Under the pieces are notes generated by a model. That model was not told the origin of the DNA and made no database searches. It saw nothing but the letters and a program-made list of their open reading frames with translations. DNA of 64,000 bases from Eledone cirrhosa (Eukaryota). Where the stretch lies: NCBI GenBank assembly GCA_964016885.1, contig OZ024740.1, positions 69,440,001 through 69,504,000 on the forward strand, read 5' to 3'. The position numbers and the translations under genes are program-made. Positions 973-64,000 of this stretch are shown one piece after another (position 1 is the stretch's first letter; every line of letters begins with the position of its first letter).

Positions 973-1072
<100 letters not shown>

Positions 1073-1362
1073 CAAATAACGAAACGAAATTAAATTTCGT
1101 TTCGTTTGTAACTCACTTTTGTATGACTGACGCTTAAACAATTAAGTTAAAAATGTACATCTACATATGCATACTGAAATACTAGTCTGTATATGAATAC
1201 ACACACGTATACATATGTAGGTGTACCAAGTCTTTCACTGGTCGCTTTACAGTGAGCGGCCCAGCTATTCTGTACGTAAACACACAGACAAACCGGTTTT
1301 TAGAGTCATACTGGTTTTCGGGGGGAACACCTTCCCTCCATTCTCCAGAAAGCCAGACAAGG

Positions 1363-1407
1363 AATATTGGACTAGTTTCGTTGTTGTTACAACTCATCAG
1401 CAATATT
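1363..1407 (-). ncRNA. Minimal type I hammerhead ribozyme (further copies 1831-1875 and 2299-2343)
   Basis: Minus strand reads AAUAUUG-CUGAUGA-GUUGU aaca ACAAC-GAAA-CUAG-UC-CAAUAUU: canonical core, 7-bp stem I, 5-bp stem II, palindromic ACUAGU stem III, GUC cleavage triplet. Confidence 0.92.
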
Positions 1408-2877
1408 TACCTATCTACCGGCCTTTCTGGAGAATTGTAAAAGCACATATCGTTATATGCTTTTTCTATGAAAATTAGTAGTGGGCAGACTAATTTGCAT
1501 AGAGTGTGAGTACGCACCGGTTCAGCGGAGACGATAAAAACAAATAACGAAACGAAATTAAATTTCGTTTCGTTTGTAACTCACTTTTGTATGACTGACG
1601 CTTAAACAATTAAGTTAAAAATGTACATCTACATATGCATACTGAAATACTAGTGTGTATATGAATACACACACGTATACATATGTAGGTGTACCAAGTC
1701 TTTCACTGGTCGCTTTACAGTGAGCGGCCCAGCTATTCTGTATGTAAACACACAGACAAACCGGTTTTTAGAGTCATACTGGTTTTCGGGGGGAACACCT
1801 TCCCTCCATTCTCCAGAAAGCCAGACAAGGAATATTGGACTAGTTTCGTTGTTGTTACAACTCATCAGCAATATTTACCTATCTACCGGCCTTTCTGGAG
1901 AATTGTAAAAGCACATATCGTTATATGCTTTTTCTATGAAAATTAGTAGTGGGCAGACTAATTTGCATAGAGTGTGAGTACGCACCGGTTCAGCGGAGAC
2001 GATAAAAACAAATAACGAAACGAAATTAAATTTCGTTTCGTTTGTAACTCACTTTTGTATGACTGACGCTTAAACAATTAAGTTAAAAATGTACATCTAC
2101 ATATGCATACTGAAATACTAGTGTGTATATGAATACACACACGTATACATATGTAGGTGTACAAAGTCTTTCACTGGTCGCTTTACAGTGAGCGGCCCAG
2201 CTATTCTGTATGTAAACACACAGACAAACCGGTTTTTAGAGTCATACTGGTTTTCGGGGGGAACACCTTCCCTCCATTCTCCAGCAAGCCAGACAAGGAA
2301 TATTGGACTAGTTTCGTTGTTGTTACAACTCATCAGCAATATTTACCTATCTACCGGCCTTTCTGGAGAATTGTAAAAGCACATATCGTTATATGTTGTA
2401 ACAACAACGAAACTATCGTTATATGTTGTAACAACAACGAAACTAGTCCAATATTCCTTGTCTGGCTTTCTGGAGAATGGAGGGAAGGTGTTCCCCCGAA
2501 AACCAGTATGACTTTAAAAACCGGTTTGTCTGTGTGTTTACATACAGAATAGCTGGGCCCCTCACTGTAAAGCGACCAGTGAAAGACTTGGTACACCTAC
2601 ATATGTATACGTGTGTGTATTCATATACACACTAGTATTTCAGTATGCATATGTAGATGTACATTTTTAACTTAATTGTTTAAGCGTCAGTCATACAAAA
2701 GTGAGTTACAAACGAAACGAAATTTAATTTCGTTTCATTATTTGTTTTTATCGTCTCCGCTGAACCGGTGCGTACTCACACTCTATGCAAATTAGTCTGC
2801 CCACTACTAATTTTCATAGAAAAAGCATATAACGATATGTGCTTTTACAGTTCTCCAGAAAGGCCGGTAGATAGGTA

Positions 2878-2922
2878 AATATTGCTGATGAGTTGTAACA
2901 ACAACGAAACTAGTGCAATATT
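2878..2922 (+). ncRNA. Hammerhead copy in inverted arm with GUG triplet, probably inactive (also 3346-3390)
   Basis: aatattg ctgatga gttgt aaca acaac gaaa ctagtg caatatt; C17 is changed to G. Confidence 0.8.
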
Positions 2923-3816
2923 CCTTGTCTGGCTTTCTGGAGAATGGAGGGAAGGTGTTCCCCCCGAAAACCAGTATGACTCTAAAAACCGGTTTGTCTG
3001 TGTGTTTACATACAGAATAGCTGGGCCGTTCACTGTAAAGCGACCAGTGAAAGACTTGGTACACCTACATATGTATACGTGTGTGTATTCATATACACAC
3101 TAGTATTTCAGTATGCATATGTAGATGTACATTTTTAACTTAATTGTTTAAGCGTCAGTCATACAAAAGTGAGTTACAAACGAAACGAAATTTAATTTCG
3201 TTTCGTTATTTGTTTTTATCGTCTCCGCTGAACCGGTGCGTACTCACACTCTATGCAAATTAGTCTACCCACTACTAATTTTCATAGAAAAAGCATATAA
3301 AGATATGTGCTTTTACAATTCTCCAGAAAGGCCGGTAGATAGGTAAATATTGCTGATGAGTTGTAACAACAACGAAACTAGTGCAATATTCCTTGTCTGG
3401 CTTTCTGGAGAATGGAGGGAAGGTGTTCCCCCCGAAAACCAGTATGACTCTAAAAACCGGTTTGTCTGTGTGTTTACATACAGAATAGCTGGGCCGCTCA
3501 CTGTAAAGCGACCAGTGAAAGACTTGGTACACCTACATATGTATACGTGTGTGTATTCATATACACACTAGTATTTCAGTATGCATATGTAGATGTACAT
3601 TTTTAACTTAATTGTTTAAGCGTCAGTCATACAAAAGTGAGTTACAAACGAAACGAAATTTAATTTCGTTTCGTTATTTGTTTTTATCGTCTCCGCTGAA
3701 CCGGTGCGTACTCACACTCTATGCAAATTAGTCTGCCCACTACTAATTTTCATAGAAAAAGCATATAACGATATGTGCTTTTACAATTCTCCAGAAAGGC
3801 CGGTAGATAGGTAAAT

Positions 3817-4060
3817 CTGTTTGCTCTGATCAGAGCAAACAGCACGGACACTCTATCTCAAAATTATTTTTGAAAAGCATTTAGAAATGCGCAACCGGTA
3901 AAAACTTAAAAACTTAAAACCACAACTGAATACTAACCCATACAATCACTAATACTCTTTTATTCCTAATTAAACCATTTTTCAACTGTGAACAATTTGT
4001 CAGCATTTTCTATTCCGTTTACCAATATATAATAACTTGTGTGTTACACCTCTATTCTTT

Positions 4061-4066
<6 letters not shown>
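3817..4066. mobile_element. Short dispersed element beginning with a perfect 26-bp palindrome; related copy inverted at 56126-56318
   Basis: ctgtttgctctgatcagagcaaacag at 3817-3842. 3830-4025 matches the reverse complement of 56126-56318. Ends at (TA)n. Confidence 0.7.
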
Positions 4067-33100: not shown

Positions 33101-33590
33101 TGTTGCACCCCTCTCTATCGGGACATGCCCCTGCATAGTCCCAACGTGCATCCAGGATACCATTCCAGTCCCCCACTAAAAGCAGGGAACGGGACGTCCC
33201 TAGAAAAAATTCCAGACGCTGGACAAAGTCGGGCCGCTCTGTCCCAAAAGGGGCATATGCGGCTACCAGCCTAAAGGCTCCACCTTCACCACTGCCAAGG
33301 TCCAGCACCACCAGTCAACCCCCTGGGTCCAAGTGAACTATCTGTGTGGCAAGACCCAGATGTTTTTGCAGCAGAAGGACAACCCCACCCCCACCTCCGG
33401 GCTGACAGAGAGATGCGTGCATCTCAAAGTCGTCAAAGGTGGGGGCTAGCTGTCGCATGCTGCTGATCCGGGCCTTGCAGATAACCATCACATTTATAGA
33501 TCGTGACCTGAGGTCATTTAGAAGCATTGCTTGCTTCCAAGATGGGCCCAGGCCACGCGCATTTGGACACCCTACTCTTAGCACAGCCAT
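30155..33590 (-). pseudogene. LINE ORF2 (APE, reverse transcriptase, C-terminal zinc motif), multiple frameshifts
   Basis: Fragments: CPNARGL, LVAAYAP, VGDWN, SYLDRFL, KSPGLDGLPYE, LDQSKAFDRVDH, IRQGCPLS, AYADD, CPRCVCDEETVAHALVHC, spread over seven or more ORF pieces. Confidence 0.92.
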
Positions 33591-33769
33591 GTTGGTGGTA
33601 AAGAGGAAAGGCACTTACCTCGTCCCGGGAAGCGGGTCGCTCAATTTCCATGCTGGTTGGGGATGGGTTGTTGGGTGGTGGTTTGTGGAAGTGAAGGGGC
33701 ATCAGTGTGTTGTGTGGTTGGGGTGTTTGTGGTTGAGTGGGTGTCTGGGTGGGGGGGGGGTGATATTTT

Positions 33770-35422
33770 TTAGGAGGACGCAGTTGATTGGTTTACGCAG
33801 GGGGGGCCCACGTCCTCCGTGAAATTTATTTTCAGTGTTTTATAAAAGTTCATTGGAACTTTAATCATTTTTAAATGAGGTAGTCCCACAGCAGTTATAA
33901 AGTTAGGCCCTTCAGTTTTGACCGAAGGGTTTGATGAAATTGTTTTCAGTAGTTCTTTGTTGTCTGTGTTCATGTATGTATATTGTAAAGTCTTTTTTTG
34001 TGTAGCAGTTAGTGTTGTGTGACGGGGAGGGGTGGTTTGTATATAGTTTGTGTTCTCTTGGGGAGGGTTAAAGTTAACAAGTGTGTCTGTGGTGCGCCTC
34101 CTCTTCTTTCTTTTTACTGTTCGGAAGGGATCTTTTTCGCCTTGCGACGAAAGGGATTCGTCTTCCTTGTTGGGTGGGAGGGGTATGTTTTCTGGTAGTG
34201 TTTGCGGTGTGTGTGTTTTTGTATTTGTTTTGGGTGAGGAGGGGTTGGGTGGGACAGTATTCTGTGTTGTTTTTTCACGTGTTTGTTGTTGTTGTTGTGC
34301 TGGTGGTGGTGTTGTTGTTGTTGTGGTTGTTTTTGTTGTTGTTGTTGGGGTGGTGTTGGTGTTGGTTGCAGTGTTTTTTTTCTGTGTGAGCTGGGGACAG
34401 GCAGCCCTCAGGTGACCTCTATTGCCACAGAGGTAACAGGAGGGACGCCTACCCTCCACAATAATGTTGAGGTGGGTACGGTCATCCAGCATGACGCGCT
34501 CAGGGATTTGGGCGATACGTTCTGGTCTTATTTGTGTCAGAACTTCGATACTCGTTCCACTGAACGCGTCGCCGGATGCCTTCCCTATTGAAATGAGGTT
34601 GTCCTCGTCTAAATTGAGGAATCCGTTTAGTAACCACCAGTAGTAAATGTTTGGGGTGATGGTGGTTATCAATATTCTCTGGGGTTTTTTACCCATGTAG
34701 GTGGGGAATAAGGTGTAGTGTGTGGAACGAATTGGCGACACAGAGTATTTTTTCGCCGCCAATTCGTCTTTCATCAATATGGATAAACTCCCATAGAGTT
34801 TATCCTTTTGTATGAAAGTGATGTCTTTCATCGCTTCTTTCAGTACTAACTGAATTTCAGCTTGAGATGGTTGTGCTGTTTTTTTTGTTTTATTTAAAAT
34901 TGTACGGAATACGACAGTTCGTATTTCCGTCTGTTTTTTTAGTTCTGGAGGTGAATTTATAGAAAACGAACCGTTTTCGCCAAAAGATACATATTTTTTG
35001 GCTTTTTCCAGCATTTCTTTGGCTTTTGAAATATCTTCAAGCACATAAGTGACTGATAATTTAGCCGTTTGTGCAAAAGATATTTTGTTTTCGTTGTTGG
35101 TGTTTGTATTGTTTTGTTTCTCGTCGTTTGAGTTGTTTTCATCTTTGTTGTTGTTGTCTTTCTCGTTTGGTGTGTGGATACTTGTGACGTTTGTGTTGTT
35201 GTTGTTTTTGTTGTCTTTATTGTTGCTGTTGTTGTCGTTGTTGTTGTTTTCAGTTTCTTGTATAGTTGTGGCTACATCAAGTTGTCGGTCAACAGGTGAA
35301 GAAAATTCTTCCTCTGGCTGACCTCTGCCTTTGGCATCTGCTGCTGTGACAGTGGCAGGGGGAAGCTGTGAGTATGACTTCCCTTTTCTTCCTTTGACTG
35401 TTGGTGAAGATGCTTCAGCCAT
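33770..35422 (-). CDS. LINE ORF1 gag-like protein with CCHC zinc knuckle
   Basis: 550-aa open frame containing CYLCGNRGHLRAAC (CX2CX4HX4C), directly upstream of ORF2. Confidence 0.85.
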   Translation of the reverse strand: MAEASSPTVKGRKGKSYSQLPPATVTAADAKGRGQPEEEFSSPVDRQLDVATTIQETENNNNDNNSNNKDNKNNNNTNVTSIHTPNEKDNNNKDENNSNDEKQNNTNTNNENKISFAQTAKLSVTYVLEDISKAKEMLEKAKKYVSFGENGSFSINSPPELKKQTEIRTVVFRTILNKTKKTAQPSQAEIQLVLKEAMKDITFIQKDKLYGSLSILMKDELAAKKYSVSPIRSTHYTLFPTYMGKKPQRILITTITPNIYYWWLLNGFLNLDEDNLISIGKASGDAFSGTSIEVLTQIRPERIAQIPERVMLDDRTHLNIIVEGRRPSCYLCGNRGHLRAACPQLTQKKNTATNTNTTPTTTTKTTTTTTTPPPAQQQQQTREKTTQNTVPPNPSSPKTNTKTHTPQTLPENIPLPPNKEDESLSSQGEKDPFRTVKRKKRRRTTDTLVNFNPPQENTNYIQTTPPRHTTLTATQKKTLQYTYMNTDNKELLKTISSNPSVKTEGPNFITAVGLPHLKMIKVPMNFYKTLKINFTEDVGPPCVNQSTASS

Positions 35423-35646
35423 TTTTATAAAAATAGGATTTTTCGAAATTTTTCGAAAGATAAAATGTTTACCACACTATTTCGCCTAAAGGCGTAGAAT
35501 ATTTTGAGAGACTAACCAGATCAAAATTTGACCTGGCAGTCCCCTTACAACATGGTACGAAAATGAAAGTTTACAGTTCACAATTTCCAGATAAATTTAA
35601 ACGAAACTTACCGAGCGAGCTCAGCATATGTGTCCATCGTAAATAT

Positions 35647-35734: not shown

Positions 35735-38700
35735 ACCAAAATAAACTGTCCAATCCGTATGAAGAACTCAATGTAATCCAAATATAGAAGATATCATGAA
35801 AAGAGAAAATGCATTCAAAATTTAACGATAAAAATCATAGGAAAACAGTCAAGATAAATTAATAAAAACAATGAAATAAAAACAAAGAACAGGTTCCTTA
35901 TATTTAAAAAAATCATCATTTTACGATCGTTTCTGGGATATATGTGTGTATGTTAGTATGTATATCATATAAAGAGCTATGTAAAAAAATATTGCAAATT
36001 ATCAGAGGAGATATACATACCTTCACTTATAAATGCAATCTTCAGAAATGATGAAGTATGTTTATTGAAAGAAAGTATTAATACAAAAAGTCTGTTTGGG
36101 AACAGGTTTTGAATTGAGCAATAGAAAAGTTAGTGGTCAAGTTGATAGAATAACCGTAGTAGAAACTTTATGCTAGGAGTGGAGGAATGTAAATTAATGC
36201 TCTGAATGAAAAGAATGGGGAAGAGAAAGGTAGGGGTTAAAATGAGGTCAAGTTAATGAGATAGTGAAGGATTCCCCAAAACAAAATTGATGTTATTAAA
36301 GAATGTTGTTAAAAGTATAGGGAAAAGAATTGTATGTGGGATGAGAGTGTTAGTGAGAAATACTACTCCTGTTTAAATGTTAAGGAACCTAGATACATAA
36401 AAGTAAATTAAATTAATTGATAGGTATACTTACAGAGTTAAAATTATATCAATTCTTATGGAAGTGATAAATAAAGAAGTAAAAGAAATTAAAAAAATAT
36501 ATATATATATAGAAAGACTGAAATAGTTAAAATTGTATAACTATCTAAACAACCGTAATATTAAAGATATTAATTATATTTACTAATCCTAGGTATTGAA
36601 TGTGATAGATAGGGGATACGGTTAAAAGAAGTAGTGAGGTAAAGGATAACTTAAGGTAAAGTGAGCTGCAAGAGGGAAATAAAATTATGAAATACTTTGT
36701 AGTAAATATTTAATTATAGGTAAACTAAATTATTAAAAAATTATACTAATTTGTAGAATATAAGAGTGTGGTATATATTAATTAAGTGTATAGTATTTGA
36801 AGTTTTTTCTAATTCTATGATTCCATGATATAATTAATTCCTGTCGTTTATTTAATAGGATATCATTAGATTTCATGATTACAAATAGTTCTTGGGAGCA
36901 TAACCTACACTCATATCTACTATTTTGATAAGGAGTGGCCCTTTTGGGCACGCTCCAGGTCAGGTTATAATCAATATCTTTCTTTCTATAATTATTAATT
37001 GCTTCAGCCAACGAGGTTGTATTAGCTAATGCGGCATTTTTTAAACTATGTTTGTGGGTATTAAATCTTACTTTAAATTGGTAAGACGTAGCTCCTATAT
37101 AGGATTGAGTGGAGTCCTTAGTCCTAACTACACATGTATAGACTATATTATTAATAAGACAATTTCCCTTTAATGGGCTATTTCTTATGATTCTACAGCC
37201 ATTCGTAAATATTGTGTCAGGAGAGTTAATTGTGTTATCTATAGTGGTATTAGTGTTACTATTTTCATTAATGTATGGTTTAGAATGGGTTGTAATTAGA
37301 TTAGTATGGTTAGACAGGTTGTTGGTGGGTTATAGTTAAGGGGAGGTGGAGTTAGTAGAACACTGTTTGTTTTGGAGATTATTAGTCAAAGTTGGTGTGG
37401 AGTTTGAAGAAGAAGATGGTTTGTTTAGATTTACTTTAGTATTATTATGGTTAGTTTGATGTGTTGGTGGTATATTTATGATTTTTTACACTTATATGTG
37501 TTGTACGCACTTATATTCTGTTGTATATTCTTGGTAGTGGAGTAGGAAAATTTGACAGTAGATCTGTTTAAAATTTGATGATATTTATGGTTTGGTGGGA
37601 AATTTTTCTCTAGGATAGCAAATAATTTTTTAGGGATATTGTCTTTAATCTGTAGATTAAATGGAGCATTATACCAAGTGACCCGTCTATTACGGTTTCG
37701 ACATTGTTTCTTATATTTATATGATGTATGTGGTTTATTTAGATTAAGTGATGTTTTAGTCTGATTACTAGAAATGTTGTTAGTTATGTTGTTGACGTAT
37801 GCAAGAGTTTTATGGTGAATAATTTTCTGAAAGTCATTATCTTTTATGTGAGAAGAGGTAGAGAAATTAAGTTTTGTGTTGGTGTTTTTAGGTGTAGTAT
37901 GAGTGGCGTTTAGGTGTGGGTTTTTCATTTGGTGTTTGTTGGTAATATTAGGTTGTATGTTTGAAATATTATTAGTGCAAGGTATATAGACTAATTTGTT
38001 CTTATGGCCGCATCAAGCTAAAGCTTCATTATAAAAGGGCGCGTTTTTATCGAATACATTATGATTTGATGAAAGGTTAGAGATTCTATGCTAGGTTTTT
38101 AAGGGTGGATTTAGCGCGATTAGATTGTGAGTGTATGTAATGCAAGTTATGTTTAGGTTTATGGTAAGGTTGGTAGATACCTGTAGATAGGTCCATAGTT
38201 ATATCTAGGAAATTGACTATTTTACTGGTGTTTTCAAATGTAATAGTGAGATTATAATAGTCTTTGAGGAAAGTTCTAATAAGTTTTTTATTTATTTCAA
38301 TTTCAATTTATTTCAATTTCCGAGAGGCTAAGATTAGTGGATAGAAGAAGACAGTCATCACGATATAAACCACCTTTAAGGTGGGGAAAAGATGAATTAA
38401 TATTAAATAGGAGAAAAAGGCCCACAACATCGGTAATTTGGCCAGAATCACTAGAGCCCATAGTTATGTCGAAGAGATTACTATATGTATTTCTGGTCCA
38501 ATACTCCTTCTGAAATTAAAGTAGTGTTTGTCTAGCGTGCGTGATAATATTGATGTCATCCATAGTTAAGTCTGATCTATTTTTGGCAAATATCAAGGCT
38601 TTGTTCAGGAGTATGGGTGATATAGAGGAATAATATGCATCTATATAGAATTGTAGAAATGAAGCAGAGGATTTATTTTCAATATTAGTAAACCAAGTAA

Positions 38701-38904
38701 TTACTTGGGATGTGTTTTCCCAGAGTGGTAAATTAACGTATTTTCTTAATTGTGAGATAATTTTATCCAGAATTTGTTTGCTTATGATGCCAATGTCTGA
38801 TTTGGAAGGGCATATAAGTCTTATAGAAAGATTAAAGTTGAAATTAGATTTGTGATCCTTCAGGTTAAAGTGTGGTTTTTACAGTGCCAGGGGTTCAACT
38901 TTCT

Positions 38905-47904: not shown

Positions 47905-49689
47905 AATTCCATATATGGTAAAAGTGATTGTCACAAGGATTGGTCAAAAGTTTGTTGTTGAGACATAATAATTCTATCATGGCAATTTATGGAGGGAAGG
48001 GGTAGCTGAACCTGCCATTAGGAGACAGAGGGAGAGGGGGTGGAGGATACCCAGTCATGCGTTGATAGTGCCGACTACAGCTGGGCATGAGGTCGAAAAA
48101 GATACTAGGGAGGGGGAGGGGGAGGAAGTCGAAACAATAAGTAAAACAATATGGAGTAAATATATAGAAAAATACCGAGAGTGTTAAAAAGCAATTCAAA
48201 TTTTAAAAAAAAATAAACAATTTCTGGTTACTACGACTTAAGGACAGCTATCAAGTATCTCAGAGGTACTGCTAGGCGAGAGAAAGGTTTACTAGGTGGG
48301 GCGGAATTATAATGAGACCATTTTAAGAGGTATAAGTAATAAACCGAGTATATATTACGGTGACGGGTCAACAAGTGAGGGGCCAAAATACTAAAGAAAC
48401 TACCACAAAATAATAAATAAAGGTTTCTACCCCAGGCACAAGGCCAGCAACCACCCAAGTGCAAAAAAATAAACTAATACGAAATAATAATTCAGAATCT
48501 CGAAAAATAATACTAATACTATCTCTAAGGGTGCCGCCCTGATACAAACATTTCTAGTGCAAACTACATAAATGCTCGTACGAAGTATATGTAAAATTTG
48601 ATACGGAAAATTAATTCAGAATCCCCCCCCCCCCCCCCCCATAAAAAAAATTTATACTGATATACGAGAAATTAAAGCAAAGATACCACTAAGAAATATA
48701 GAAAGCACGGAAAAGGAGCAGCGATCGGATAAGAAGGCAAGTATCCGGGGTCTAACACATCTGCTATAAAAAGCGGAGTCGGCCAAATCATAGAATAGGG
48801 GAAGGGTGGGGTGCTGAGGCTACAAAGGACCGAGGGGCTGCCTCGGGTGGTCGAGAAAATGAAAAGGATGACGACAAAGAAAGAGGACTGGGGTGGAAGG
48901 ACTAGGGAGGGATGGGGGGAAGAAGGAAATATAGAGGTAGCGATAAAAAGATATAAAAGAAGATCTTACGTCTACCTTTGCAAGCGGGGGGTACCCACTA
49001 CAAAATCGGCAAGTAGGGTGTTATAGCCCTAGTCTACCCCTCCGGGTCATTATGGGGTTTGAGGGCGAGGTAATTCCTGCGCAATCTGTGTTTACATACA
49101 GTAACCACTTCATCTTTCTTGTTTAGGAGTTGGTCCGTCGAAAACAGCATTTGTAAAGTTTCCTCCGAGCATAAATTGCACGGACGGCATCCTCACGTGT
49201 AAGAGTTGGCTCTGCACAGTAAGCTCCAAGTGAGATGATAGGTAATGTTGTTATCCTTGAGGTCCCATATGTGGCCCTAAAGTGTAGTGGCGTGACGCCG
49301 AGCCGGGTTTCGGAAGGTATGTCTGTGTTGGTATAGCCGGGTCTTGAAGTCACATGCGGTTAATCCTATATAAGCTTTGTTGGAGGTGTCCGTCCTCACG
49401 TTGCACTGGTAGATAACATTACGATCTCTGCATCTGTTGTCGAGGGGGCAAATGGATCCATCAGGACAGTTGCACCTCCTGGTCGGCTCTCCACTGCTAT
49501 TTAGGTTATTTCTTCCATAGGGGTTGAGTTTTTTGTTGTTAGAGGAGACGATGTTTTGTGCGAAGTTTGGTGTGGTGCTGTAAGAGAGTTTGATGGTATT
49601 TTTGTTAATTATGTTGTGGTAGCGGTGTTGTAGTGGGAAGTGTTTTTCAATGAGCCTAAAGAAGATTTTCCCGATAGGAGTTGTCACCT

Positions 49690-50206
49690 CGTCTCCTCTA
49701 ACAACAAAAAACTCAACCCCTATGGAAGAAATAACCTAAATAGCAGTGGAGAGCCGACCAGGAGGTGCAACTGTCCTGATGGATCCATTTGCCCCCTCGA
49801 CAACAGATGCAGAGATCGTAATGTTATCTACCAGTGCAACGTGAGGACGGACACCTCCAACAAAGCTTATATAGGATTAACCGCATGTGACTTCAAGACC
49901 CGGCTATACCAACACAGACATACCTTCCGAAACCCGGCCCGGCGTCACGCCACTACACTTTCGGGCCACATATGGGACATCAAGGATAACAACATTACCT
50001 ATCATCTCACTTGGACCTTACTGTCCAGAGCCAACTCTTACACGGGAGGACGCCATCCGTGCAATTTATGCTCAGAGGAAACTTTACAAATGCTGTTTTC
50101 GACGGACCAACTCCTAAACAAGAAAGATGAAGTGGTTACTGCATGTAAACACAGATTGCGCAGGACTTACCTCGCCCTCAAACCCCATAATGACCCGGAG
50201 GGGTAG
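49690..50206 (+). pseudogene. PLE GIY-YIG endonuclease domain, 5'-truncated; mirror copy at about 49030-49687 on minus strand
   Basis: CNCPDGSICPLDNRC..VIYQC..AYIGLT..FKTRLYQH..CNLC.EE..LLNKKDE..CKH. Confidence 0.88.
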
Positions 50207-51669: not shown

Positions 51670-51674
<5 letters not shown>

Positions 51675-52672
51675 ATACTTTGGGAGGGTCATGTTGCCAA
51701 TAAGAAACACACGCACCAGTTACTTTCACTTCAATTTATTATATATTTATAAATTTATAAATTTACAAATGTACAAACTTATAAATTTCTGGTTGGTTGG
51801 TTGGTTCCACAACCAGATAGTTGTTTATATATAGTCATAGTCCTTTCGTCACACACTCTGTGACCTCTTCAGTGACTGGGGATTCCTTTCTTTGTTTCTG
51901 TGCCTTTCCTTTCTTCTATCCTACGCCATTTTGTTTCTGTGTGCGTGTTGTGTGCTCAGTTTGCGCATGCGCCACATCCGGGTGTCTGTGTGTGTTTGTG
52001 TTCATTTATCTATTTGTTTATTTATTTATTTATTTATTTATTGTTGGTTGGTTGTTTGTTCTATGTGTGTGTGTGTTTTCATTTTGTCCTGTGTGTGTTT
52101 TCATTTTGTCCTTAATTGTAAGTTGTGATGTTGCTGTTCCACTCATATTTTCTATTTAATTTTTGTTGTAATTCTTTTATGCTTACTGCCTCTGTAATTT
52201 GCCTAAACACACACACACATAGAACAAACAACCAACCAAGAATAAATAAATAAATAAATAAACAAATAGATAAATGAACACAAACACACACAGACACCCG
52301 GATGTGGCGCATGCGCAAACTGAGCACACAACACACACACAGAAACAAAATGGCGTAGGATAGAAGAAAGGAAAGGCACAGAAACAAAGAAAGGAATCCC
52401 CAGTCACTGAAGAGGTCACAGAGTATGTGACGAAAGGACTATGACTATATATAAACAACTATCTGGTTGTGGAACCAACCAACCAACCAGAAATGTATAA
52501 GTTTGTAGATTTGTAAATTTATAAATTTATAAATATATAATAAATTGAAGTGAAAGCAACTGGTGCGTGTGTTTCTTATTGGCAACATGACCCTCCCAAA
52601 GTATAACAATATCGGTTTCAACACACGATTTCAGATAAAGAATCTTGCTAAACAAATTCAGAAACGAAATGT
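51670..52672. mobile_element. Fold-back PLE 3' end: about 410-bp inverted arms around a GIY-YIG C-terminal stub
   Basis: 51670-52079 mirrors 52206-52612. The spacer encodes RQITEAVSIKELQQKLNRKYEW on the minus strand, matching the R.I.EA..I.....LN end of PLE endonucleases. Confidence 0.85.
52402..52446 (+). ncRNA. Minimal hammerhead ribozyme (mirror copy 51833-51877 on minus strand)
   Basis: AGUCA-CUGAAGA-gGUCACA gagua UGUGAC-GAAA-GGAC-UA-UGACU. Confidence 0.82.
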
Positions 52673-53227: not shown

Positions 53228-55760
53228 TTAGTTGAACCATGGTTCCGTGAAGGAGGCAAATGGTGTACTGTGGTTTGGTATGATTTCCCTTTTTAGAGAG
53301 TTAATGTGCAGGGGGAAGCAATTCTTGCTGGGTGATATTTTAGGTAGGATGTGATGGAGGTAACTCTTGTAAATGTTTGATGGTTTGTTGCAGTTTTGGA
53401 TTGGTCCGATTTTTAAGGCATTGAGTAGTGTTTGAAATTTATTAATGAAATGTGTTACCTTATTGGTGCGTTGGGTGAAAGTAGCATTGTCTATGAATTT
53501 GTAAATGGAGAAAATTTTAAAGTTTGGATGTTGGTTGAGAGCACAATTGGCGATATGTTCAGTAAATGCAATCTTTCTGTATTCCTGTATTTTAATTTGT
53601 GATTTATGGACGGTCATACGTTGACCGAGGCTGTTTTTTGTCTGTCCTATGTAGTGCTCTTGACAAGCTGAGCAGGTCAAAACATAGATAAGGTTTTCAG
53701 ATGCACATGTAAAGTTGTGTTTAACTGTGAAACGTTGTCTTTGTTTAAAATGGAATGTTGAACCTTCTATTAGATTTATGCATATGCCACAGTTGGGCCT
53801 TCCGCATTTTGTTACTGTAGGCTTTATTGTGAAGGTTTGTTGGATTTTGGTTTGTGTGCGGATGTTTTTTATGGATTTGGGTTGTCTTTTGCTCTTTATG
53901 ATGTTGTGTGTTTGGAGGATATTGTTCATTCTTGGGTCTCTTTTTAGTAAAGGAATGTTCTGGATGATGGTATTGAATGCCTCATTGTTGAGGGGGTTGT
54001 GTGTGGAGATGTATGGTAGAGTTTTTGTTGCGGTTCACTCCTGGGTTTGGAGTGTCTGAGTTCCTGGATGTCTAGTTTTAGGGCACGTTGGAATCCATTG
54101 GTGATTAGGGATGGTGGGTAGTTTCTGCTGATAAGTGTGTTTTTTAAATTCTTCTAGTTGTGTGTAGCATGTGTATTTATCTGAAACTATTGTGCAGATC
54201 CTTCTGGCTAGGTTATAAAGAATTGCCATTTTGGTGTGTCTAGGGTGGCACGAGTTGAATGGAAGGTATTGTTTGTAGTATATGTCTGTTTCTATTGTGT
54301 TTCTTGTTTTCTTGATGAGGATGTCGAGGAAAGGGAGTTGTTCATGGCTGTAATCCATTGTGAATTGTAAGTTAGTATTGAGTCCATTTAGAAGGGTTTT
54401 AAACTCAAACAGTCTATCTATACTTTCATGCCAGAGGATGAAGGAGTCGTCCAGATATCTCTTCCAGTTTTTTTCTGTGTAGGTAGAAGTGGTTACCGTA
54501 TTTGTCTAGAACTTTTCGGTAGAGAATGGTTTCCAAATATCCCATGACAAGGTTGGCGTATGAGGGGGCTACTTTCGTGCCCATGGCAGTCCCAGATTTC
54601 TGTCTGTAGTATTTGGCATTGAATTCGAAGAAATTGTTGAAAAGATGAATTTGAGTCCTTCCAACACAAATTCTTTAGGGATGCGTTGTGGAAGTTCACT
54701 AGGGAAATGTTCCATCCAGAATTGCATTGCCTCTCTACCTAGGTTATGTGGGATATTGGAATATAAATTGATGACATCAAAGGTTACTAGTAGTGTATGT
54801 TCTTATTGAGTGTTGTTGGGAGGTGGTTGAGCATGTCAAGGTCGTCCCTTATGAAGCATTTTATATGTTTTAGGAAAGGTTTAAGCAGAATATCTAGGAA
54901 GTTGCTAAGGCGATGGGTTTCACATGTGGTGCCTGCTATTATGGGTCTTAATTTAAGGTCATCAGGAGGGGCTATATTGATGTAAACGTCTGTGGCTTGC
55001 TTGCAGGCCCTGCCTATTACTTCGCTTTTGTGTGTCTTGGGGATACCGTAGAAGAAGCTGGTTCTGCTTTTGAAATTGGTGATGTAGTTATATTCATTGT
55101 CTGTAAGGCCTTCTTTGTAAAGGGTCGTTAGGGATTTTAGGTTTCTCATTAATTTCTCTTGTGTGTAGTGTTGGGCCTTTTCATAATATGTTTGGTTTTC
55201 TAGAGTTGAGAGTACTAGAGTTTTGTAATAATCTGTCTCCATAAGGACTACTGCACTCTCTTTATCTGCCTCTTTGATTGTTAGGGTTTTGTCGTTTTTT
55301 AGACTGTTAAGACCATTCCAATCGTTTTTGCTTAGGTTTGGTTTTTGTTTATGTCTGTGTAGGTGGTGGTATGAGTAATTAGTAATGTGTTCGTAGAATT
55401 GATCGAGGAATTTATTCTTGCCTTTTGGTGGGTATAGTTGCTTCTATTTCTGGCTATTGAGTCATCCTCATTGTATTTGTTGTATAGTTGTTCGCTGAGT
55501 CTTAGTTTTCTACAGAATTCTGCAATATCTTCCTTCATTTCGGAGCAGTTTGGTTGTTGGGAAGTTGGTGTAAATTTTAGACCTTTGGAGAGTATGTTGA
55601 TTTGGTCTGTTGTTAATTCTTTGGAGATTAAATTGAAAATGTTTATTGCATTTTGTGTCTCCTGTGTGTTTTGTGTTATCTTGTAATTCTGTGTCTGTGT
55701 GCTGTGTCTAAAAAATGATTACGGAAGTTGTGATGGCTGTTGAAGTTTGGATGTCTCTTA
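53228..55760 (-). mobile_element. Penelope-like element, Neptune-type (RT, Cys-rich linker, GIY-YIG), frameshifted
   Basis: [38 protein letters not shown] (about 54447-54467), LPFLDI, CGRPNCGIC, TCASENLIYVLTCSACQEHYIGQT. Confidence 0.9.
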
Positions 55761-56125: not shown

Positions 56126-56129
<4 letters not shown>

Positions 56130-56318
56130 TAAACGGAATAGAAAATGGTGACAAATTGTTCACAGTTGAAAAATAGTTTAATTAGGAATAAAAGAGTATT
56201 GGTAATTGTATTGGTAAGTATTCAGTTGTGGTTTTAAGTTTTTACCGGTTGCGCATTTCTAAATGCTTTTCAAAAATAATTTTGAAATAGAGCGTCCGTG
56301 TTGTTTCCTCTGATCTGT
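56126..56318. mobile_element. Short element inside (TA)n, inverted homolog of 3830-4025
   Basis: tggtaaacggaatagaaaatg...accggttgcgcatttctaaatgcttttcaaaaataattttga...ctctgatc. Confidence 0.7.
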
Positions 56319-56365: not shown

Positions 56366-56436
<71 letters not shown>

Positions 56437-56955
56437 TTAATATAGATGAGATTCTACAGGACTAGAACTGTTTCATTATTTAGAAATCATCAGGAATCTG
56501 GCATTCCTAAAATGAATGTTGTGGTATTTATATATTTTCAGGTGGTAGAAGAGGGAGGGGAGTGGGATGGGTGGCGGTCATTGGGTGAAAGAAAAGGGGA
56601 TTCATTAAAAGCTAATTCTTTAAGGCTATAATTTCTATTTAGAGTTACAAAGGCAGAAAGAATTCTATAAACAAGTTCAGAATGGGGTACCACTCCTTAT
56701 TTTTAAGTTTCTCTTGAGCTAACAATGCCTATATTTTAGGTGCCTATAAAATGGTTGGGGGCCGGTCATGTTGATGTATTTAAAGATAAGGGAAATTCAT
56801 TAAAATCTTATTCATTAAAGCTCTACTTAGAGTGACAAAGGCCAAGAGAATTCTATAAACTAGTTCAAAATATTGGGTGCCTCTCATATCATCATTGTCA
56901 TATTTCTCTTAAGCTATATTCCAGGTGTCAACAAACACATCCACACAACTACACG

Positions 56956-57061
<106 letters not shown>

Positions 57062-57111
57062 CATATATATACACATACACACACATAGACACATATACAC
57101 ACAGACATATG

Positions 57112-57143
<32 letters not shown>

Positions 57144-57168
57144 CAAATATATATATATATATACAAAT

Positions 57169-57223
<55 letters not shown>

Positions 57224-57225
57224 TA

Positions 57226-57268
<43 letters not shown>

Positions 57269-57273
<5 letters not shown>

Positions 57274-60200
57274 CAAATAACGAAACGAAATTAAATTGTA
57301 TGTAAACACACAGACAAACCGGTTTTTAGAGTCATACTGGTTTTCGAGGAAACACCTTTCCTCTATTCTCCAGAAAGCCAGACAGGAATATTGGACTAGT
57401 TTCGATGTTGTTACATCTCATCAGCAATATTTACCTATTCCGGCCTCTCTAGAGAATCGTAAAAGCACATATCGTTATATGCTTTTTCTATGAAAATTAG
57501 TAGTGGGCAGACTAATTTGCATAGAGCGTGAGTACGTACCGGTTCAGCGGAGACGATAAAAACAAATAACGAAACGAAATTAAATTTCGCTTCGTTTGTA
57601 ACTCACTTTTGTATGACTGACGCTTAAACAATTAAGATAAAAATGTACATCCACATATGTATACTGAAATATTAGTATGCATATGAATACACACACGTGT
57701 ACATATGTAGATGTACCGAGTTTTTCACTGGACACTTTACTGTGAGTGTTCAGCTATTCTGTATGTAAACACACAGACAAACCGGTTTTTAGAGTCATAC
57801 TGGTTTTCGAGGAAACACCTTTCCTCTATTCTCCAGAAAGCCAGACATGAATATTGGACTAGTTTCGATGTTGTTACATCTCATCAGCAATATTTACCTA
57901 TTCCGGCCTCTCTAGAGAATCGTAAAAGCACATATCGTTATATGCTTTTTCTATGAAAATTAGTAGTGGGCAGACTAATTTGCATAGAGCGTGAGTACGT
58001 ACCGGTTCAGCGGAGACGATACAAACAAATAACGAAACGAAATTAAATTTCGCTTCATTTGTAACTCACTTTTGTATGACTGACGCTTAAACAATTAAGT
58101 GAAAAATGTACATCCACATATGTATACTGAAATATTAGTATGCATATGAATACACACACGTGTACATATGTAGATGTACCGAGTTTTTCACTGGACACTT
58201 TACTGTGAGTGTTCAGCTATTCTGTATGTAAACACACAGACAAACCGGTTTTTAGAGTCATACTGGTTTTCGAGGAAACACCTTTCCTCTATTCTCCAGA
58301 AAGCCAGACAGGAACATTGGACTAGTTTCGATGTTGTTACATCTCATCAGCAATATTTACCTATTCCGGCCTCTCTAGAGAATCGTAAAAGCACATATCG
58401 TTATATGCTTTTTCTATGAAAATTAGTAGTGGGCAGACTAATTTGCATAGAGCGTGAGTACGTACCGGTTCAGCGGAGACGATAAAAACAAGTAACGAAA
58501 CGAAATTAAATTTCGCTTCGTTTGTAACTCACTTTTGTATGACTGACGCTTAAACAATTAAGTTAAAAATGTACATCCACATATGTATACTGAAATATTA
58601 GTATGCATATGAATACACACACGTGTACATATGTAGATGTACCGAGTTTTTCACTGGACACTTTACTGTGATTGTTCAGCTATTCTGTATGTAAACACAC
58701 AGACAAACCGGTTTTTAGAGTCATACTGGTTTTCGAGGAAACACCTTTCCTCTATTCTCCAGAAAGCCAGACAGGAATATTGGACTAGTTTCGATGATGT
58801 TACATCTCATTAGCAATATTTACCTATTCCGGCCTCTCTAGAGAATCGTAAAAGCACATATCGTTATATGCTTTTTCTATGAAAATTAGTAGTGGACAGA
58901 CTAATTTGCATAGAGCGTGAGTACGTACCGGTTCAGCGGAGACGATAAAAACAAATAACGAAACGAAATTAAATTTCGCTTCGTTTGTAATTCACTTTTG
59001 TATGACTGACGCTTAAACAATTAAGTTAAAAATGTACATTCACATATGTATACTGAAATATTAGTATGCATATGAATACACACACGTGTACATATGTAGA
59101 TGTACCGAGTTTTTCACTGGACACTTTACTGTGAGTGTTCAGCTATTCTGTATGTAAACACACAGACAAACCGGTTTTTAGAGTCATACTGGTTTTCGAG
59201 GAAACACCTTTCCTCTATTCTCCAGAAAGCCAGACAGGAATATTGGACTAGTTTCGATGTTGTTACATCTCATCAGCAATATTTACCTATTCCGGCCTCT
59301 CTAGAGAATCGTAAAAGCACATATCGTTATATGCTTTTTCTATGAAAATTAGTAGTGGGCAGACTAATTTGCATAGAGCGTGAGTACGTACCGGTTCAGC
59401 GGAGACGATAAAAACAAATAACGAAACGAAATTGAATTTCGCTTCGTTTGTAACTCACTTTTGTATGACTGACGCTTAAACAATTAAGTTAAAAATGTAC
59501 ATCCACATATGTATACTGAAATATTAGTATGCATATGAATACACACACGTGTACATATGTAGATGTACCGAGTTTTTCACTGGACACTTTACTGTGAGCG
59601 TTCAGCTATTCTGTATGTAAACACACAGACAAACCGGTTTTTAGAGTCATACTGGTTTTCGAGGAAACACCTTTCCTCTATTCTCCAGAAAGCCAGACAG
59701 GAATATTGGACTAGTTTCGATGTTGTTACATCTCATCAGCAATATTTACCTATTCCGGCGTCTCTAGAGAATCGTAAAAGCACATATCGTTATATGCTTT
59801 TTCTATGAAAATTAGTAGTGGGCAGACTAATTTGCATAGAGCGTGAGTACGTACCGGTTCAGCGGAGACGATAAAAACAAATAACGAAACGAAATTAAAT
59901 TTCGCTTCGTTTGTAACTCACTTTTGTATGACTGACGCTTAAACAATTAAGTTAAAAATGTACATCCACATATGTATACTGAAATATTAGTATGCATATG
60001 AATACACACACGTGTACATATGTAGATGTACCGAGTTTTTCACTGGACACTTTACTGTGAGTGTTCAGCTATTCTGTATGTAAACACACAGACAAACCGG
60101 TTTTTAGAGTCATACTGGTTTTCGAGGAAACACCTTTCCTCTATTCTCCAGAAAGCCAGACAGGAATATTGGACTAGTTTCGATGTTGTTACATCTCATC

Positions 60201-63200
60201 AGCAATATTTACCTATTCCGGCCTCTCTAGAGAATCGTAAAAGCACATATCGTTATATGCTTTTTCTATGAAAATTAGTAGTGGGCAGACTAATTTGCAT
60301 AGAGCGTGAGTACGTACCGGTTCAGCGGAGACGATAAAAACAAATAACGAAACGAAATTAAATTTCGCTTCGTTTGTAACTCACTTTGTATGACTGACGC
60401 TTAAACAATTAAGTTAAAAATGTACATCCACATATGTATACTGAAATATTAGTATGCATATGAATACACACACGTGTACATATGTAGATGTACCGAGTTT
60501 TTCACTGGACACTTTACTGTGAGTGTTCAGCTATTCTGTATGTAAACACACAGACAAACCGGTTTTTAGAGTCATACTGGTTTTCGAGGAAACACCTTTC
60601 CTCTATTCTCCAGAAAGCCAGACATGAATATTGGACTAGTTTCGATGTTGTTACATCTCATCAGCAATATTTACCTATTCCGGCCTCTCTAGAGAATCGT
60701 AAAAGCACATATCGTTATATGCTTTTTCTATGAAAATTAGTAGTGGGCAGACTAACTTGCATAGAGCGTGAGTACATACCGGTTCAGCGGAGACGATAAA
60801 AGCAAATAACGAAACGAAATTAAATTTCGCTTCGTTTGTAACTCACTTTTGTATGACTGACGCTTAAACAATTAAGTTAAAAATGTACATCCACATGTGT
60901 ATACTGAAATATTAGTATGCATATGAATACACACACGTGTACATATGTAGATGTACCGAGTTTTTCACTGGACACTTTACTGTGAGTGTTCAGCTATTCT
61001 GTATGTAAGCACACAGACAAACCGGTTTTTAGAGTCATACTGGTTTTCGAGGAAACACCTTTCCTCTATTCTCCAGAAAGCCAGACAGGAATATTGGACT
61101 AGTTTCGATGTTGTTACATCTCATCAGCAATATTTACCTATTCCGGCCTCTCTAGAGAATCGTAAAAGCACATATCGTTATATGCTTTTTCTATGAAAAT
61201 TAGTAGTGGGCAGACTAATTTGCATAGAGCGTGAGTACGTACCGGTTCAGCGGAGACGATAAAAACAAATAACGAAACGAAATTAAATTTCGCTTCGTTT
61301 GTAACTCACTTTTGTATGACTGACGCTTAAACAATTAAGTTAAAAATGTACATCCACATATGTATACTGAAATATTAGTATGCATATGAATACACACACG
61401 TGTACATATGTAGATGTACCGAGTTTTTCACTGGACACTTTACTGTGATTGTTCAGCTATTCTGTATGTAAACACACAGACAAACCGGTTTTTAGAGTCA
61501 TACTGGTTTTCGAGGAAACACCTTTCCTCTATTCTCCAGAAAGCCAGACAGGAATATTGGACTAGTTTCGATGATGTTACATCTCATTAGCAATATTTAC
61601 CTATTCCGGCCTTTCTAGAGAATCGTAAAAGCACATATCGTTATATGCTTTTTCTATGAAAATTAGTAGTGGACAGACTAATTTGCATAGAGCGTGAGTA
61701 CGTACCGGTTCAGCGGAGACGATAAAAAAAAATAACGAAACGAAATTAAATTTCGCTTCGTTTGTAACTCACTTTTGTATGACTGACGCTTTAACAATTA
61801 AGTTAAAAATGTACATCCACATATGTATACTGAAATATTAGTATGCATATGAATACACACACGTGTACATATGTAGATGTACCGAGTTTTTCACTGGACA
61901 CTTTACTGTGAGTGTTCAGCTATTCTGTATGTAAACACACAGACAAACCGGTTTTTAGAGTCATACTGGTTTTCGAGGAAACACCTTTCCTCTATTCTCC
62001 AGAAAGCCAGACAGGAATATTGGACTAGTTTCGATGTTGTTACATCTCATCAGCAATATTTACCTATTCCGGCCTCTCTAGAGAATCGTAAAAGCACATA
62101 TCGTTATATGCTTTTTCTATGAAAATTAGTAGTGGGCAGACTAATTTGCATAGAGCGTGAGTACGTACCGGTTCAGCGGAGACGATAAAAACAAATAACG
62201 AAACGAAATTGAATTTCGCTTCGTTTGTAACTCACTTTTGTATGACTGACGCTTAACCAATTAAGTTAAAAATGTACATCCACATATGTATACTGAAATA
62301 TTAGTATGCATATGAATACACACACGTGTACATATGTAGATGTACCGAGTTTTTCACTGGACACTTTACTGTGAGTGTTCAGCTATTCTGTATGTAAACA
62401 CACAGACAATCCGGTTTTTAGAGTCATACTGGTTTTCTAGGAAACACCTTTCCTCTATTCTCCAGAAAGCCAGACAGCAATATTGGACTAGTTTCGATGT
62501 TGTTACATCTCATCAGCAATATTTACCTATTCCGGCCTCTCTAGAGAATCGTAAAAGCACATATCGTTATATGCTTTTTCTATGAAAATTAGTAGTGGGC
62601 AGACTAATTTGCATAGAGCGTGAGTACGTACCGGTTCAGCGGAGACGATAAAAACAAATAACGAAACGAAATTAAATTTCGCTTCGTTTGTAACTCACTT
62701 TTGTATGACTGACGCTTAAACAATTAAGTTAAAAATGTACATCCACATATGTATACTGAAATATTAGTATGCATATGAATACACACACGTGTACATATGT
62801 AGATGTACCGAGTTTTTCACTGGACACTTTACTGTGAGTGTTCAGCTATTCTGTATGTAAACACACAGACAAACCGGTTTTTAGAGTCATACTGGTTTTC
62901 GAGGAAACACCTTACCTCTATTCTCCAGAAAGCCAGACAGGAATATTGGACTAGTTTCGATGTTGTTACATCTCATCAGCAATATTTACCTATTCCGGCC
63001 TCTCTAGAGATTCGTAAAAGCACATATCGTTATATGCTTTTTCTATGAAAATTAGTAGTGGGCAGACTAATTTGCATAGAGCGTGAGTACGTACCGGTTC
63101 AGCGGAGAGGATAAAAACAAATAACGAAACGAAATTAAATTTCGCTTCGTTTGTAACTCACTTTTGTATGACTGACGCTTAAACAATTAAGTTAAAAATG

Positions 63201-64000
63201 TACATCCACATATGTATACTGAAATATTAGTATGCATATGAATACACACACGTGTACATATGTAGATGTACCGAGTTTTTCACTGGACACTTTACTGTGA
63301 GTGTTCAGCTATTCTGTATGTAAACACACAGACAAACCGGTTTTTAGAGTCATACTGGTTTTCGAGGAAACACCTTTCCTCTATTCTCCAGAAAGCCAGA
63401 CAGGTATATTGGACTAGTTTCGATGTTGTTACATCTCATCAGCAATATTTACCTATTCCGGCCTCTCTAGAGAATCGTAAAAGCACATATCGTTATATGC
63501 TTTTTCTATGAAAATTAGTAGTGGACAGACTAATTTGCATAGAGCGTGAGTACGTACCGGTTCAGCGGAGACGATAAAAACAAATAACGTAACGAAATTA
63601 AATTTCGCTTCGTTTGTAACTCACTTTTGTATGACTGACGCTTAAACAATTAAGTTAAAAATGTACATCCACATATGTATACTGAAATATTAGTATGCAT
63701 ATGAATACACACACGTGTACATATGTAGATGTACCGAGTTTTTCACTGGACACTTTACTGTGAGTGTTCAGCTATTCTGTATGTAAACACACAGACAAAC
63801 CGGTTTTTAGAGTCATACTGGTTTTCGAGGAAACACCTTACCTCTATTCTCCAGAAAGCCAGACAGGAATATTGGACTAGTTTCGATGTTGTTACATCTC
63901 ATCAGCAATATTTACCTATTCCGGCCTCTCTAGAGATTCGTAAAAGCACATATCGTTATATGCTTTTTCTATGAAAATTAGTAGTGGGCAGACTAATTTG
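57269..64000 (-). repeat. 463-bp tandem array with 15 hammerhead copies visible; runs off the window end; subfamily of the 468-bp repeat
   Basis: Period 463 (one unit 462). Clearly homologous to 1068-3816 with fixed differences. Confidence 0.95.
57387..57431 (-). ncRNA. Minimal type I hammerhead ribozyme; copies about every 463 bp up to 63868-63912
   Basis: AAUAUUG-CUGAUGA-GAUGU aaca ACAUC-GAAA-CUAG-UC-CAAUAUU. Confidence 0.92.

Follow-up and report, generated by a model that had tools for sequence, protein, structure and literature searches.

A tandem hammerhead array in Eledone cirrhosa is one insertion of a dispersed retrozyme family with insertion ends like those of Penelope-like elements

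The tandem array and its hammerhead motif

The stretch of DNA analysed here, called the window throughout, comprises 64,000 nucleotides of Eledone cirrhosa (assembly GCA_964016885.1, contig OZ024740.1, positions 69,440,001 to 69,504,000), and its right end is occupied by a tandem array of a 463-bp unit with a hammerhead ribozyme motif on the minus strand. A first-pass annotation, made from the letters alone, had read this array as a satellite of self-cleaving ribozymes copied by the enzymes of Penelope-like elements (PLEs). We find that the array is one insertion of a dispersed, young, non-coding, non-autonomous retrozyme family of the kind that lacks long terminal repeats (non-LTR), here named R1. 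The term satellite array thus holds for the tandem repetition and fails for the idea of a local satellite, the array being a single transposon insertion that was partly expanded locally afterwards. The features of the insertion, in window coordinates, are the following (RT, reverse transcriptase; TRF, Tandem Repeats Finder).

56975..57266, no strand: microsatellite tract of (TA)n that forms the left half of the target (TRF; end statistics of the family)
57267..64000, minus: the insertion's long-ended arm, of about 15.7 units, continuing to 64545 (locus L001 = G000:C1:69503001-69512000)
57267..57297, minus: fixed 'long' 3' end, unit positions 433-463
57424, 57887, 58350, 59276, 59739, 60202, 60664, 61127, 62053, 62516, 62979, 63442, 63905, minus: starts of the intact hammerhead cores
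57515..57522, minus: octamer ATGCAAAT, once per unit
57556..58018, minus: one complete 463-nt unit in the phase of the element (unit position 463 = 57556)
57556..57629, minus: 'tail' segment of about 70 nt between the two fixed ends, which are putative RT start sites (end classes; lineage variants)
58775..58824, minus: hammerhead with a mismatch in stem II and a CUAAUGA core (G5A), matched by a twin at a distance of 2777 bp (6 units), near 61590
59237..59287, minus: representative canonical type I hammerhead, predicted cut after the C at 59246 (GUC)
64545 to 65740 (window-equivalent), plus: inverted arm of 2.6 units with a short end (unit position 389-391) in (TA)n (L001)

TRF reports the array within the window at 57297-64000, with a period of 463, 14.5 copies and 98% matches; it runs on for 545 bp beyond the window before the inverted arm begins, and both outer ends of the insertion lie in (TA)n. 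The minus strand carries 15 GAAACUAGUC sites, 13 of them with CUGAUGA and two, at 58792 and 61569, with CUAAUGA. The G5A change in the hammerhead core is inactivating. This recount agrees with the 15 copies and 13 intact cores of the first-pass annotation, as does the layout of the motif, AAUAUUG CUGAUGA GAUGU AACA ACAUC GAAA CUAG UC^CAAUAUU, with its stem I of 7 bp (6 bp in one copy), stem II of 5 bp and palindromic ACUAGU. The unit has a GC content of about 36%, and its longest ATG-initiated open reading frame (ORF) amounts to 29 aa in sense and 68 aa in antisense (copy of L010), in keeping with the claimed lack of real coding potential. The terminal unit jumps unit positions 260-432 at 57297, and a long hairpin lies in the skipped region.

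The label 'minimal' given to the hammerhead has to be withdrawn: stem I continues past a UAA bulge, which makes the architecture canonical. Canonical metazoan hammerheads are described as having a helix I of about 6 bp with a loop 1, a helix II of about 4 bp and a helix III of 1-2 bp with a palindromic loop, and as being active as dimers, while the minimal hammerhead of PLEs (min-HHR) has a helix I of 4-5 bp, an ill-defined loop 1 and a long helix II of 7-8 bp (PMC4209133). With a helix I of 7 bp plus the extension past the bulge and a helix II of 4-5 bp, R1 departs from min-HHR, and its sequence fits the canonical metazoan type I of that definition.

No match anywhere in the window reached the Rfam gathering threshold. 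Ranked by E-value, the best match is Hammerhead_HH9 (RF02275; E=2.4e-5), whose score of 30.1 bits falls short of the cut-off of 52 and whose alignment takes in both loop 2 and the stem I bulge. The topology is alike in the stem I bulge and the hexaloop 2; R1 differs in scoring below the gathering value and in a stem III reduced to the palindrome. Matches to microRNA families in the same ranking reflect the AT-rich hairpin of the unit and were rejected. The window unit that was folded, one that ends in a mutated core, reaches -147 kcal/mol (z=-8.7 against 100 shuffles), and in the predicted circular monomer stems I and II pair with probability 0.64-1.0. As modelled, the monomer would be highly self-paired with the hammerhead still free to fold.

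Each unit of R1 and of R2, a 57%-identical sister family, contains the octamer ATGCAAAT once, and a third family, R3, lacks it. The octamer is possibly a promoter element of the small nuclear RNA (snRNA) type, by analogy with newt satellite II, which uses such a promoter (PMC2220036); the parallel comes from one motif and is a lead.

The family, its sister families and the conservation of the ribozyme

The R1 family comprises at least 9,101 exact hammerhead matches and at least 2,239 exact long-end junctions in the 3.0-Gb genome, and its copies are scattered over many chromosomes as monomers to multimers. Classical satellite DNA, with few long, locally grown arrays and arbitrary ends, was rejected on account of these fixed junctions and of a median arm of about 1.5 units (~700 bp).

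Two sister families accompany R1. R2 has a unit of 475 nt (range 420-550 nt) in the same phase, identical to R1 in 254 of 445 aligned columns, and 24,602 exact core-pattern matches in the genome (its loci include L091:7730-8501 and L115-L144). Its cut site is GUA, its stem II has a U-U mismatch at the base, and its two-arm anatomy is like that of R1, with ends at 475 and 410-417 and a tail of about 62 nt. R3, with a unit of 310 nt, a CGCG tetraloop and a tail of about 40 nt, is represented by one two-arm array (L114:5600-9000), in which 3+8 near-identical units stand head-to-head in (CA)n.

The hammerhead core, loop 2 and the palindrome (CUAG, changed to CGCG in R3) are kept across all three families. 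In an alignment of 12 hammerheads (six R1, five R2, one R3) 93.6% of cells pair and both sides change in 10 of 17 pairs; none of 500 shuffles reaches this level and slid controls fall far lower, although the shuffle figure is not a probability, because there are only three lineages. This covariation of the stems, together with the dispersal over many chromosomes, upholds the retrozyme reading of the first-pass annotation. Among R1 loci 7 of 44 hammerhead positions vary, a low figure that is partly circular because the loci were chosen by the hammerhead pattern; lineage variants occupy 7 of 64 tail positions against 136 of 339 elsewhere.

R1 shares with the metazoan non-LTR retrozymes of coral, mussel and axolotl (PMC7229834) and of Xenopus and others (bioRxiv 10.64898/2026.07.22.740005) AT-rich, non-coding units that are repeated in tandem, measure a few hundred bases and each contain a type I hammerhead, a highly paired monomer, many dispersed loci and the presence of PLEs in the same genome. 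Its unit of 463-468 nt lies above the 150-450 of the former source and within the 51-972 of the latter. It differs from the retrozymes described in those sources in that most of its copies have a GUU cut site. At the level of sequence R1 agrees with a metazoan non-LTR retrozyme in its hammerhead, its unit, its dispersal and its folding, and we infer cleavage and circular RNA. By description, newt satellite 2, Schistosoma Sm-alpha and the cave-cricket repeats are likewise tandem repeats with a dimer-type hammerhead.

Anatomy of the insertions

The anatomy was analysed at 60 R1 loci, made up of the best genome matches, a locus met by chance and clusters drawn in list order from the exact pattern matches; the set is for that reason biased to GUC copies, and the end and uniformity statistics given below rest mostly on GUC loci. 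Unit positions of ends refer to a 465-nt reference.

Two arms, set head-to-head with their 5' ends inward, are found at 45 of the 60 loci. Among 43 complete two-arm loci, 39 combine a long end at 460-465 with a short end at 382-410, and 31 of these 39 short ends lie at 391 or 396; the remaining four have one non-standard end, and neither a long/long nor a short/short locus occurs. The long and short pairing is seen in 15 of 17 loci of the in-order subset, and end coordinates alone, taken over C1 0-122 Mb (100 long and 53 short ends), give 29 long and short pairs among 31 inward-facing pairs, with one long/long and one short/short (p=1.5e-8). Two seemingly single-armed loci carry a micro-arm with a short end. 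The two fixed ends are 69-74 nt apart, and this distance forms a tail at only one of the insertion's ends. (TA)n adjoins 86 of 97 standard outer ends, and, the targets being such tracts, a target-site duplication cannot be read. Inner junctions, estimated at the level of BLAST alignments, show an overlap of 1-12 nt in 25 of 45 cases, a blunt join in seven and 1-31 extra bases in 13.

PLEs are known for an inverted 5'-truncated copy, a tail of 30-40 bp at one end and the targeting of microsatellites (PMC8557442). In vitro, a PLE protein, by prediction dimeric, cleaves both strands, extends both and starts at two internal sites of the RNA, the tail being the segment between them (PMC11167929). 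The inverted copy, the tail at one end and the (TA)n targeting of R1 match this insertion signature in sequence, and the PLE families of the same genome have two end positions about 35-70 nt apart. R1 resembles in these respects the PLEs with a C-terminal GIY-YIG domain and a Cys linker (Neptune/Nematis type, PMC8557442) and Poseidon PAc (PMC11167929), which share the inverted 5'-truncated copy, the tail at one end, the AT-rich or microsatellite target, the two internal RT start sites and the priming of both strands (each putative in R1) and the hammerhead in the repeat. It differs from them in having no ORF, in arms that are both whole-unit multimers and in a canonical hammerhead as opposed to the minimal type of their pseudo-LTRs (pLTRs). 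Long and short ends are strictly paired, one of each, which would mean that each target strand uses a different PLE start site. On this sequence evidence the insertions were almost certainly made by PLE enzymes, and the two-arm inverted structure, the tail and the (TA)n targeting support the mobilisation by PLEs that the first-pass annotation had supposed.

Inverted arms and microhomology junctions also recall L1 twin priming, and remnants of long interspersed nuclear elements (LINEs) are common in the window. A LINE enzyme, or a DNA-based route such as that of miniature inverted-repeat transposable elements or of extrachromosomal DNA circles, is nevertheless scarcely credible here: the fixed internal ends about 70 nt apart and the unequal termini, with neither poly(A) nor a LINE-like 3' end, speak against it, as does the same two-end pattern in the genome's own PLE families.

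Inner arm ends are mildly clustered (11 of 90) at unit positions 206-220, the 3' base of a stable hairpin, which suggests stalling of the RT. In L014, L018 and L180 the long arm stops at its own start site, its length being within 0-4 nt of an integer number of units; about 0.5 such cases would be expected, and the cases are few.

Circle or multimer as the template

The cleavage site is crossed by 35 of 39 long arms and 34 of 39 short arms, and only one of 90 inner ends falls within 5 nt of it. Arms that run through the site and seldom end near it imply that the template RNA was unbroken there, whether as a circle or as a multimer left uncut. No seam is visible at the cleavage junction: 193 of 256 covered hammerheads are identical to the reference, and changes show no pile-up at the cut site. 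Tandem cDNA could in principle also arise from linear cleaved monomers if the RT jumped from end to end at this site; such jumping would likewise give uniform arms and single-unit bottlenecks, and RT jumps do occur, as in the 173-nt skip at 57297. The seamless junction and the single inner end near the cut make this very unlikely.

Arms exceed one unit in 32 of 39 long and 26 of 39 short cases, both arms doing so at 20 of 39 loci. Units diverge by 1.08% within arms and by 0.96% between the arms of one locus, against 3.2% between loci, and among about 80 arms the opposite arm is the best or tied-best match at 23 of 37 testable loci (uniquely best at 13) and not at 14. Locus L189, with 4.35+3.71 units in nine fragments, has no singleton in 3,642 bp and two locus-private single-nucleotide polymorphisms (SNPs) present in both arms. 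Subfamilies that diverge from the reference by 8-10% are still uniform internally, which points to single-unit bottlenecks. With a median arm of about 1.5 units and long identical arms in existence, regrowth would be simplest from a circular monomer, and we regard the monomer circle as the probable template. Contigs of four sequencing runs of unknown kind cover the retrozyme unit and say nothing on strand, ends or circles; thin matches in three further organisms (B-D) were left out of the evidence.

We hypothesize that a PLE RT primes both target strands and rolls round a circular monomer RNA, a reading which we hold to be probable and the best explanation of the observations as a whole. The arrays would be transcribed, and the type I hammerheads, probably acting as dimers through the palindromic stem III, would cut the RNA to unit length, after which the monomers would be ligated into highly paired circles of about 465 nt. 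A PLE protein with RT and GIY-YIG domains would bind the circle and cut both strands of a (TA)n tract, and one cDNA per strand would be primed at two fixed internal sites about 70 nt apart, a step strongly implied by the ends. Each cDNA would circle the template for about 0.1 to several turns, and the two would join head-to-head, often at microhomologies of 1-12 nt, to give the two-arm insertion. Long arrays, that of the window among them, would be expanded in part afterwards by local duplication or conversion.

Several observations weigh against this reading. Exact end patterns across the genome number 2,239 long and 1,057 short, which is not a 1:1 ratio; short ends vary more, and a few bases make up the whole of some short arms; and the tail of 69-74 nt exceeds the published 30-40 nt of PLEs. 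The cut-site triplet is GUU in 5,980 and GUC in 3,121 of the 9,101 exact hammerhead matches. Hammerhead cleavage was not required by an anole PLE, whose main substrate was uncleaved RNA (PMC11167929), and only one of nine Xenopus retrozyme dimers was cleaved in vitro (bioRxiv 10.64898/2026.07.22.740005). At the 76 PLE-anchored loci surveyed, which represent few of the genome's PLEs, no pLTR with homology to the retrozyme unit turned up. Loci L011, L100 and L191 are mosaic, with variants partly shared between units, and the variants of the window array are shared at a spacing of six units (six alleles in three pairs) and also at other spacings, so that part of the tandem growth in these arrays was not single-pass reverse transcription; long arrays, including that of the window, have in part grown later by local duplication or conversion.

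The same two-site priming by a PLE could have used an uncleaved linear multimer transcribed from the parent array, the ribozyme being secondary or late. The dispensability of hammerhead activity for PLE insertion in vitro (PMC11167929), the larger size of the GUU lineage and the periodic shared variants of long arrays all fit such a template. It would, however, be expected to pass on unit heterogeneity, and short parents would be unable to give long daughters, whereas the median arm is about 1.5 units and yet L189 has identical arms of 4+4 units with private SNPs and the diverged subfamilies are uniform. A compensatory stem II change, moreover, arose within the GUU clade. We consider the linear multimer a rather unlikely alternative to the circle.

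The GUU copies deserve separate consideration. The arrays of the window are GUC, save for two GUG copies and one truncated copy in the plus arm 2427-3816 of a second insertion. In a tree of 29 loci with the cut site masked, four GUU loci fall in one clade (support 62) with two GUC loci and a compensatory stem II change, so that GUU is the state of a lineage that kept transposing. Cleavage at GUU is slow. No measured GUU cleavage rate was found in the literature searched, and GUU is listed among the cleavable NUH sites (PMC3138052). By analogy, either slow cleavage would favour the circle, or cleavage would matter less than assumed, as in the anole PLE assay; the lineage is itself a natural experiment on the amount of ribozyme activity that an element of this kind requires.

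A more far-reaching version of the hypothesis is tentative and in our estimation doubtful. Each insertion would be the record of a single dimer of a PLE protein that began two cDNAs at fixed sites of one circular RNA and rolled round it, and, if so, would testify directly in the genome that PLEs carry out rolling-circle target-primed reverse transcription on animal retrozymes; the dominant lineage would have tuned its ribozyme down (GUC to GUU), keeping the circle closed and hence spreading more; and the sister families, which differ in tail length and in target, (TA)n or (CA)n, would each parasitise a different PLE.

The search for a partner element

Young PLEs with a Cys linker, a C-terminal GIY-YIG domain and open RT and endonuclease frames of 938 and 1096 aa are present in the genome, and copies of one PLE family, termed A, are about 98% identical. 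By motif and not by tree, their clade would be of the Neptune or Nematis type. The search for a partner, made with the endonuclease of the PLE neighbouring the window array and with PF01541, covered part of the PLE complement; PF01541 gave 10,596 GIY-YIG candidates, of which 150 were scored. The retrozyme unit itself has no RT and GIY-YIG ORF, and in this differs from an autonomous PLE.

The first-pass annotation had allowed that the unit might merely be the pLTR of a known autonomous PLE. None of the 76 PLE-anchored loci, few as they are among the PLEs of the genome, has a pLTR homologous to the unit. A related explanation is that the unit is the orphaned pLTR of an undiscovered autonomous PLE, its inserts being truncated PLE ends amplified locally by unequal crossover, a scenario put forward in bioRxiv 10.64898/2026.07.22.740005. 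The unit does have every feature of a PLE end, the PLE complement was sampled in part, the 3' region of a PLE joins an arm in sense at L110, and the six-unit periodicity of the window array is local duplication. A direct join to a PLE coding region is found, however, at just one of 60 R1 loci, and that PLE family has a different pLTR; many arms measure 1.0-1.9 units and both exceed one unit at 20 of 39 loci, which unequal crossover from a single pLTR does not yield; and multi-unit arms with zero differences exist already in the youngest loci. We therefore judge the orphaned pLTR improbable as the source of the present insertions, while the unit may possibly have descended from a pLTR long ago.

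Tail lengths are alike between R1 (about 70) and one PLE family and between R2 (about 62) and family A, and a T-rich motif TTTCG.TTTC is shared; no partner is named from these. The pLTRs of the PLEs at L081, L093 and L035 carry hammerhead-like variants, read by eye, that seemingly have a U3-A8 pair instead of C3-G8.

Relation to published work

According to a review, retrozyme repeats show no motif that reveals the mobilising partner (PMC7761336); PLEs have been argued for as partners from co-occurrence and pLTR homology, and local amplification has been suggested for arrays (bioRxiv 10.64898/2026.07.22.740005). R1 and its sister families bear on the identity of that partner in that their insertion ends carry the PLE signature of two start sites at thousands of loci in three families. 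The exact positions of the putative RT starts on a small RNA could be used in an in vitro PLE assay, and they offer a means of distinguishing circles from multimers.

Two-arm insertions, paired long and short ends and (TA)n targets do not appear in the main text of PMC7229834 or of bioRxiv 10.64898/2026.07.22.740005, supplements not covered; in the available text the word 'inverted' occurs zero times in the former, and in the latter 'tail' occurs zero times and 'inverted' in a reference title alone. Neither the two-arm anatomy nor a dominant GUU lineage was found in the text of PMC7761336 or in the wider literature searched, which did not cover Repbase, Dfam or supplements. The available text of an octopus repeat annotation (PMC13282606) has no mention of a ribozyme, and 235 hammerhead hits in the giant squid were counted only (PMC6962438). 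The first-pass annotation had known of no description of the family, and none was found in the literature searched (Repbase and Dfam not covered). R1 is thus a new family of a known class with an informative insertion footprint; the two-arm anatomy may be general among retrozymes and merely unreported.

Other elements of the window

A second array of the same family, absent from the first-pass annotation, lies at 1066-3816, with a 468-bp unit about 92% identical to that of the main array and likewise inverted. Its arms and the PLE near the main array are as follows.

1066..2395, minus: long-ended arm of the second insertion, which belongs to the 468-nt subfamily; lies in (TA)n and shows a compensatory change in stem II
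2427..3816, plus: inverted arm of the second insertion, ending at unit position 127-129 and abutting the 3' end of a PLE pLTR family (~3817-4064)
53231..55718, minus: neighbouring broken PLE with RT motifs, Cys linker and GIY-YIG

The broken PLE, not identified as the partner, shows by its motifs what kind of enzyme is present, and bivalve molluscs supply the named eukaryotic relatives of its protein (45-46%). The regions 3817-4064 and 56127-56310 are 3' ends of one PLE pLTR family (that of L093), with and without the tail. The end at 3817 meets the retrozyme arm through a 26-nt palindrome, and at L110 the 3' region of a PLE type with a CNC..CP..C linker is joined directly to an R1 arm. Either a template switch or a deletion could account for these two joins to PLE sequence, the one at 3816 and that in L110. 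Remnants of the CNC..CP..C type are also found in the window at 49277-50206 and 36778-38878, and 49100-50200 forms an inverted pair.

The flanks of L001, L007, L010, L011, L012, L016 and L018 hold several different PLE-related ends within the same (TA)n tracts, which indicates that such microsatellites act as insertion hot spots. A short inverted pair of another element at 51670-52610 has a hammerhead-like motif (cores at 52407, plus, and 51872, minus) and (TA)n on its flanks, and this element recurs next to other loci. At 56433-56920 lies the end of an element with a CUGAUGA-containing motif at 56493 (minus); inside L195 this end forms an inverted pair, and in L093 a short palindrome. The minus strand of 30155-35476 carries a broken GC-rich LINE with endonuclease, RT and an ORF1-like frame of 568 aa.

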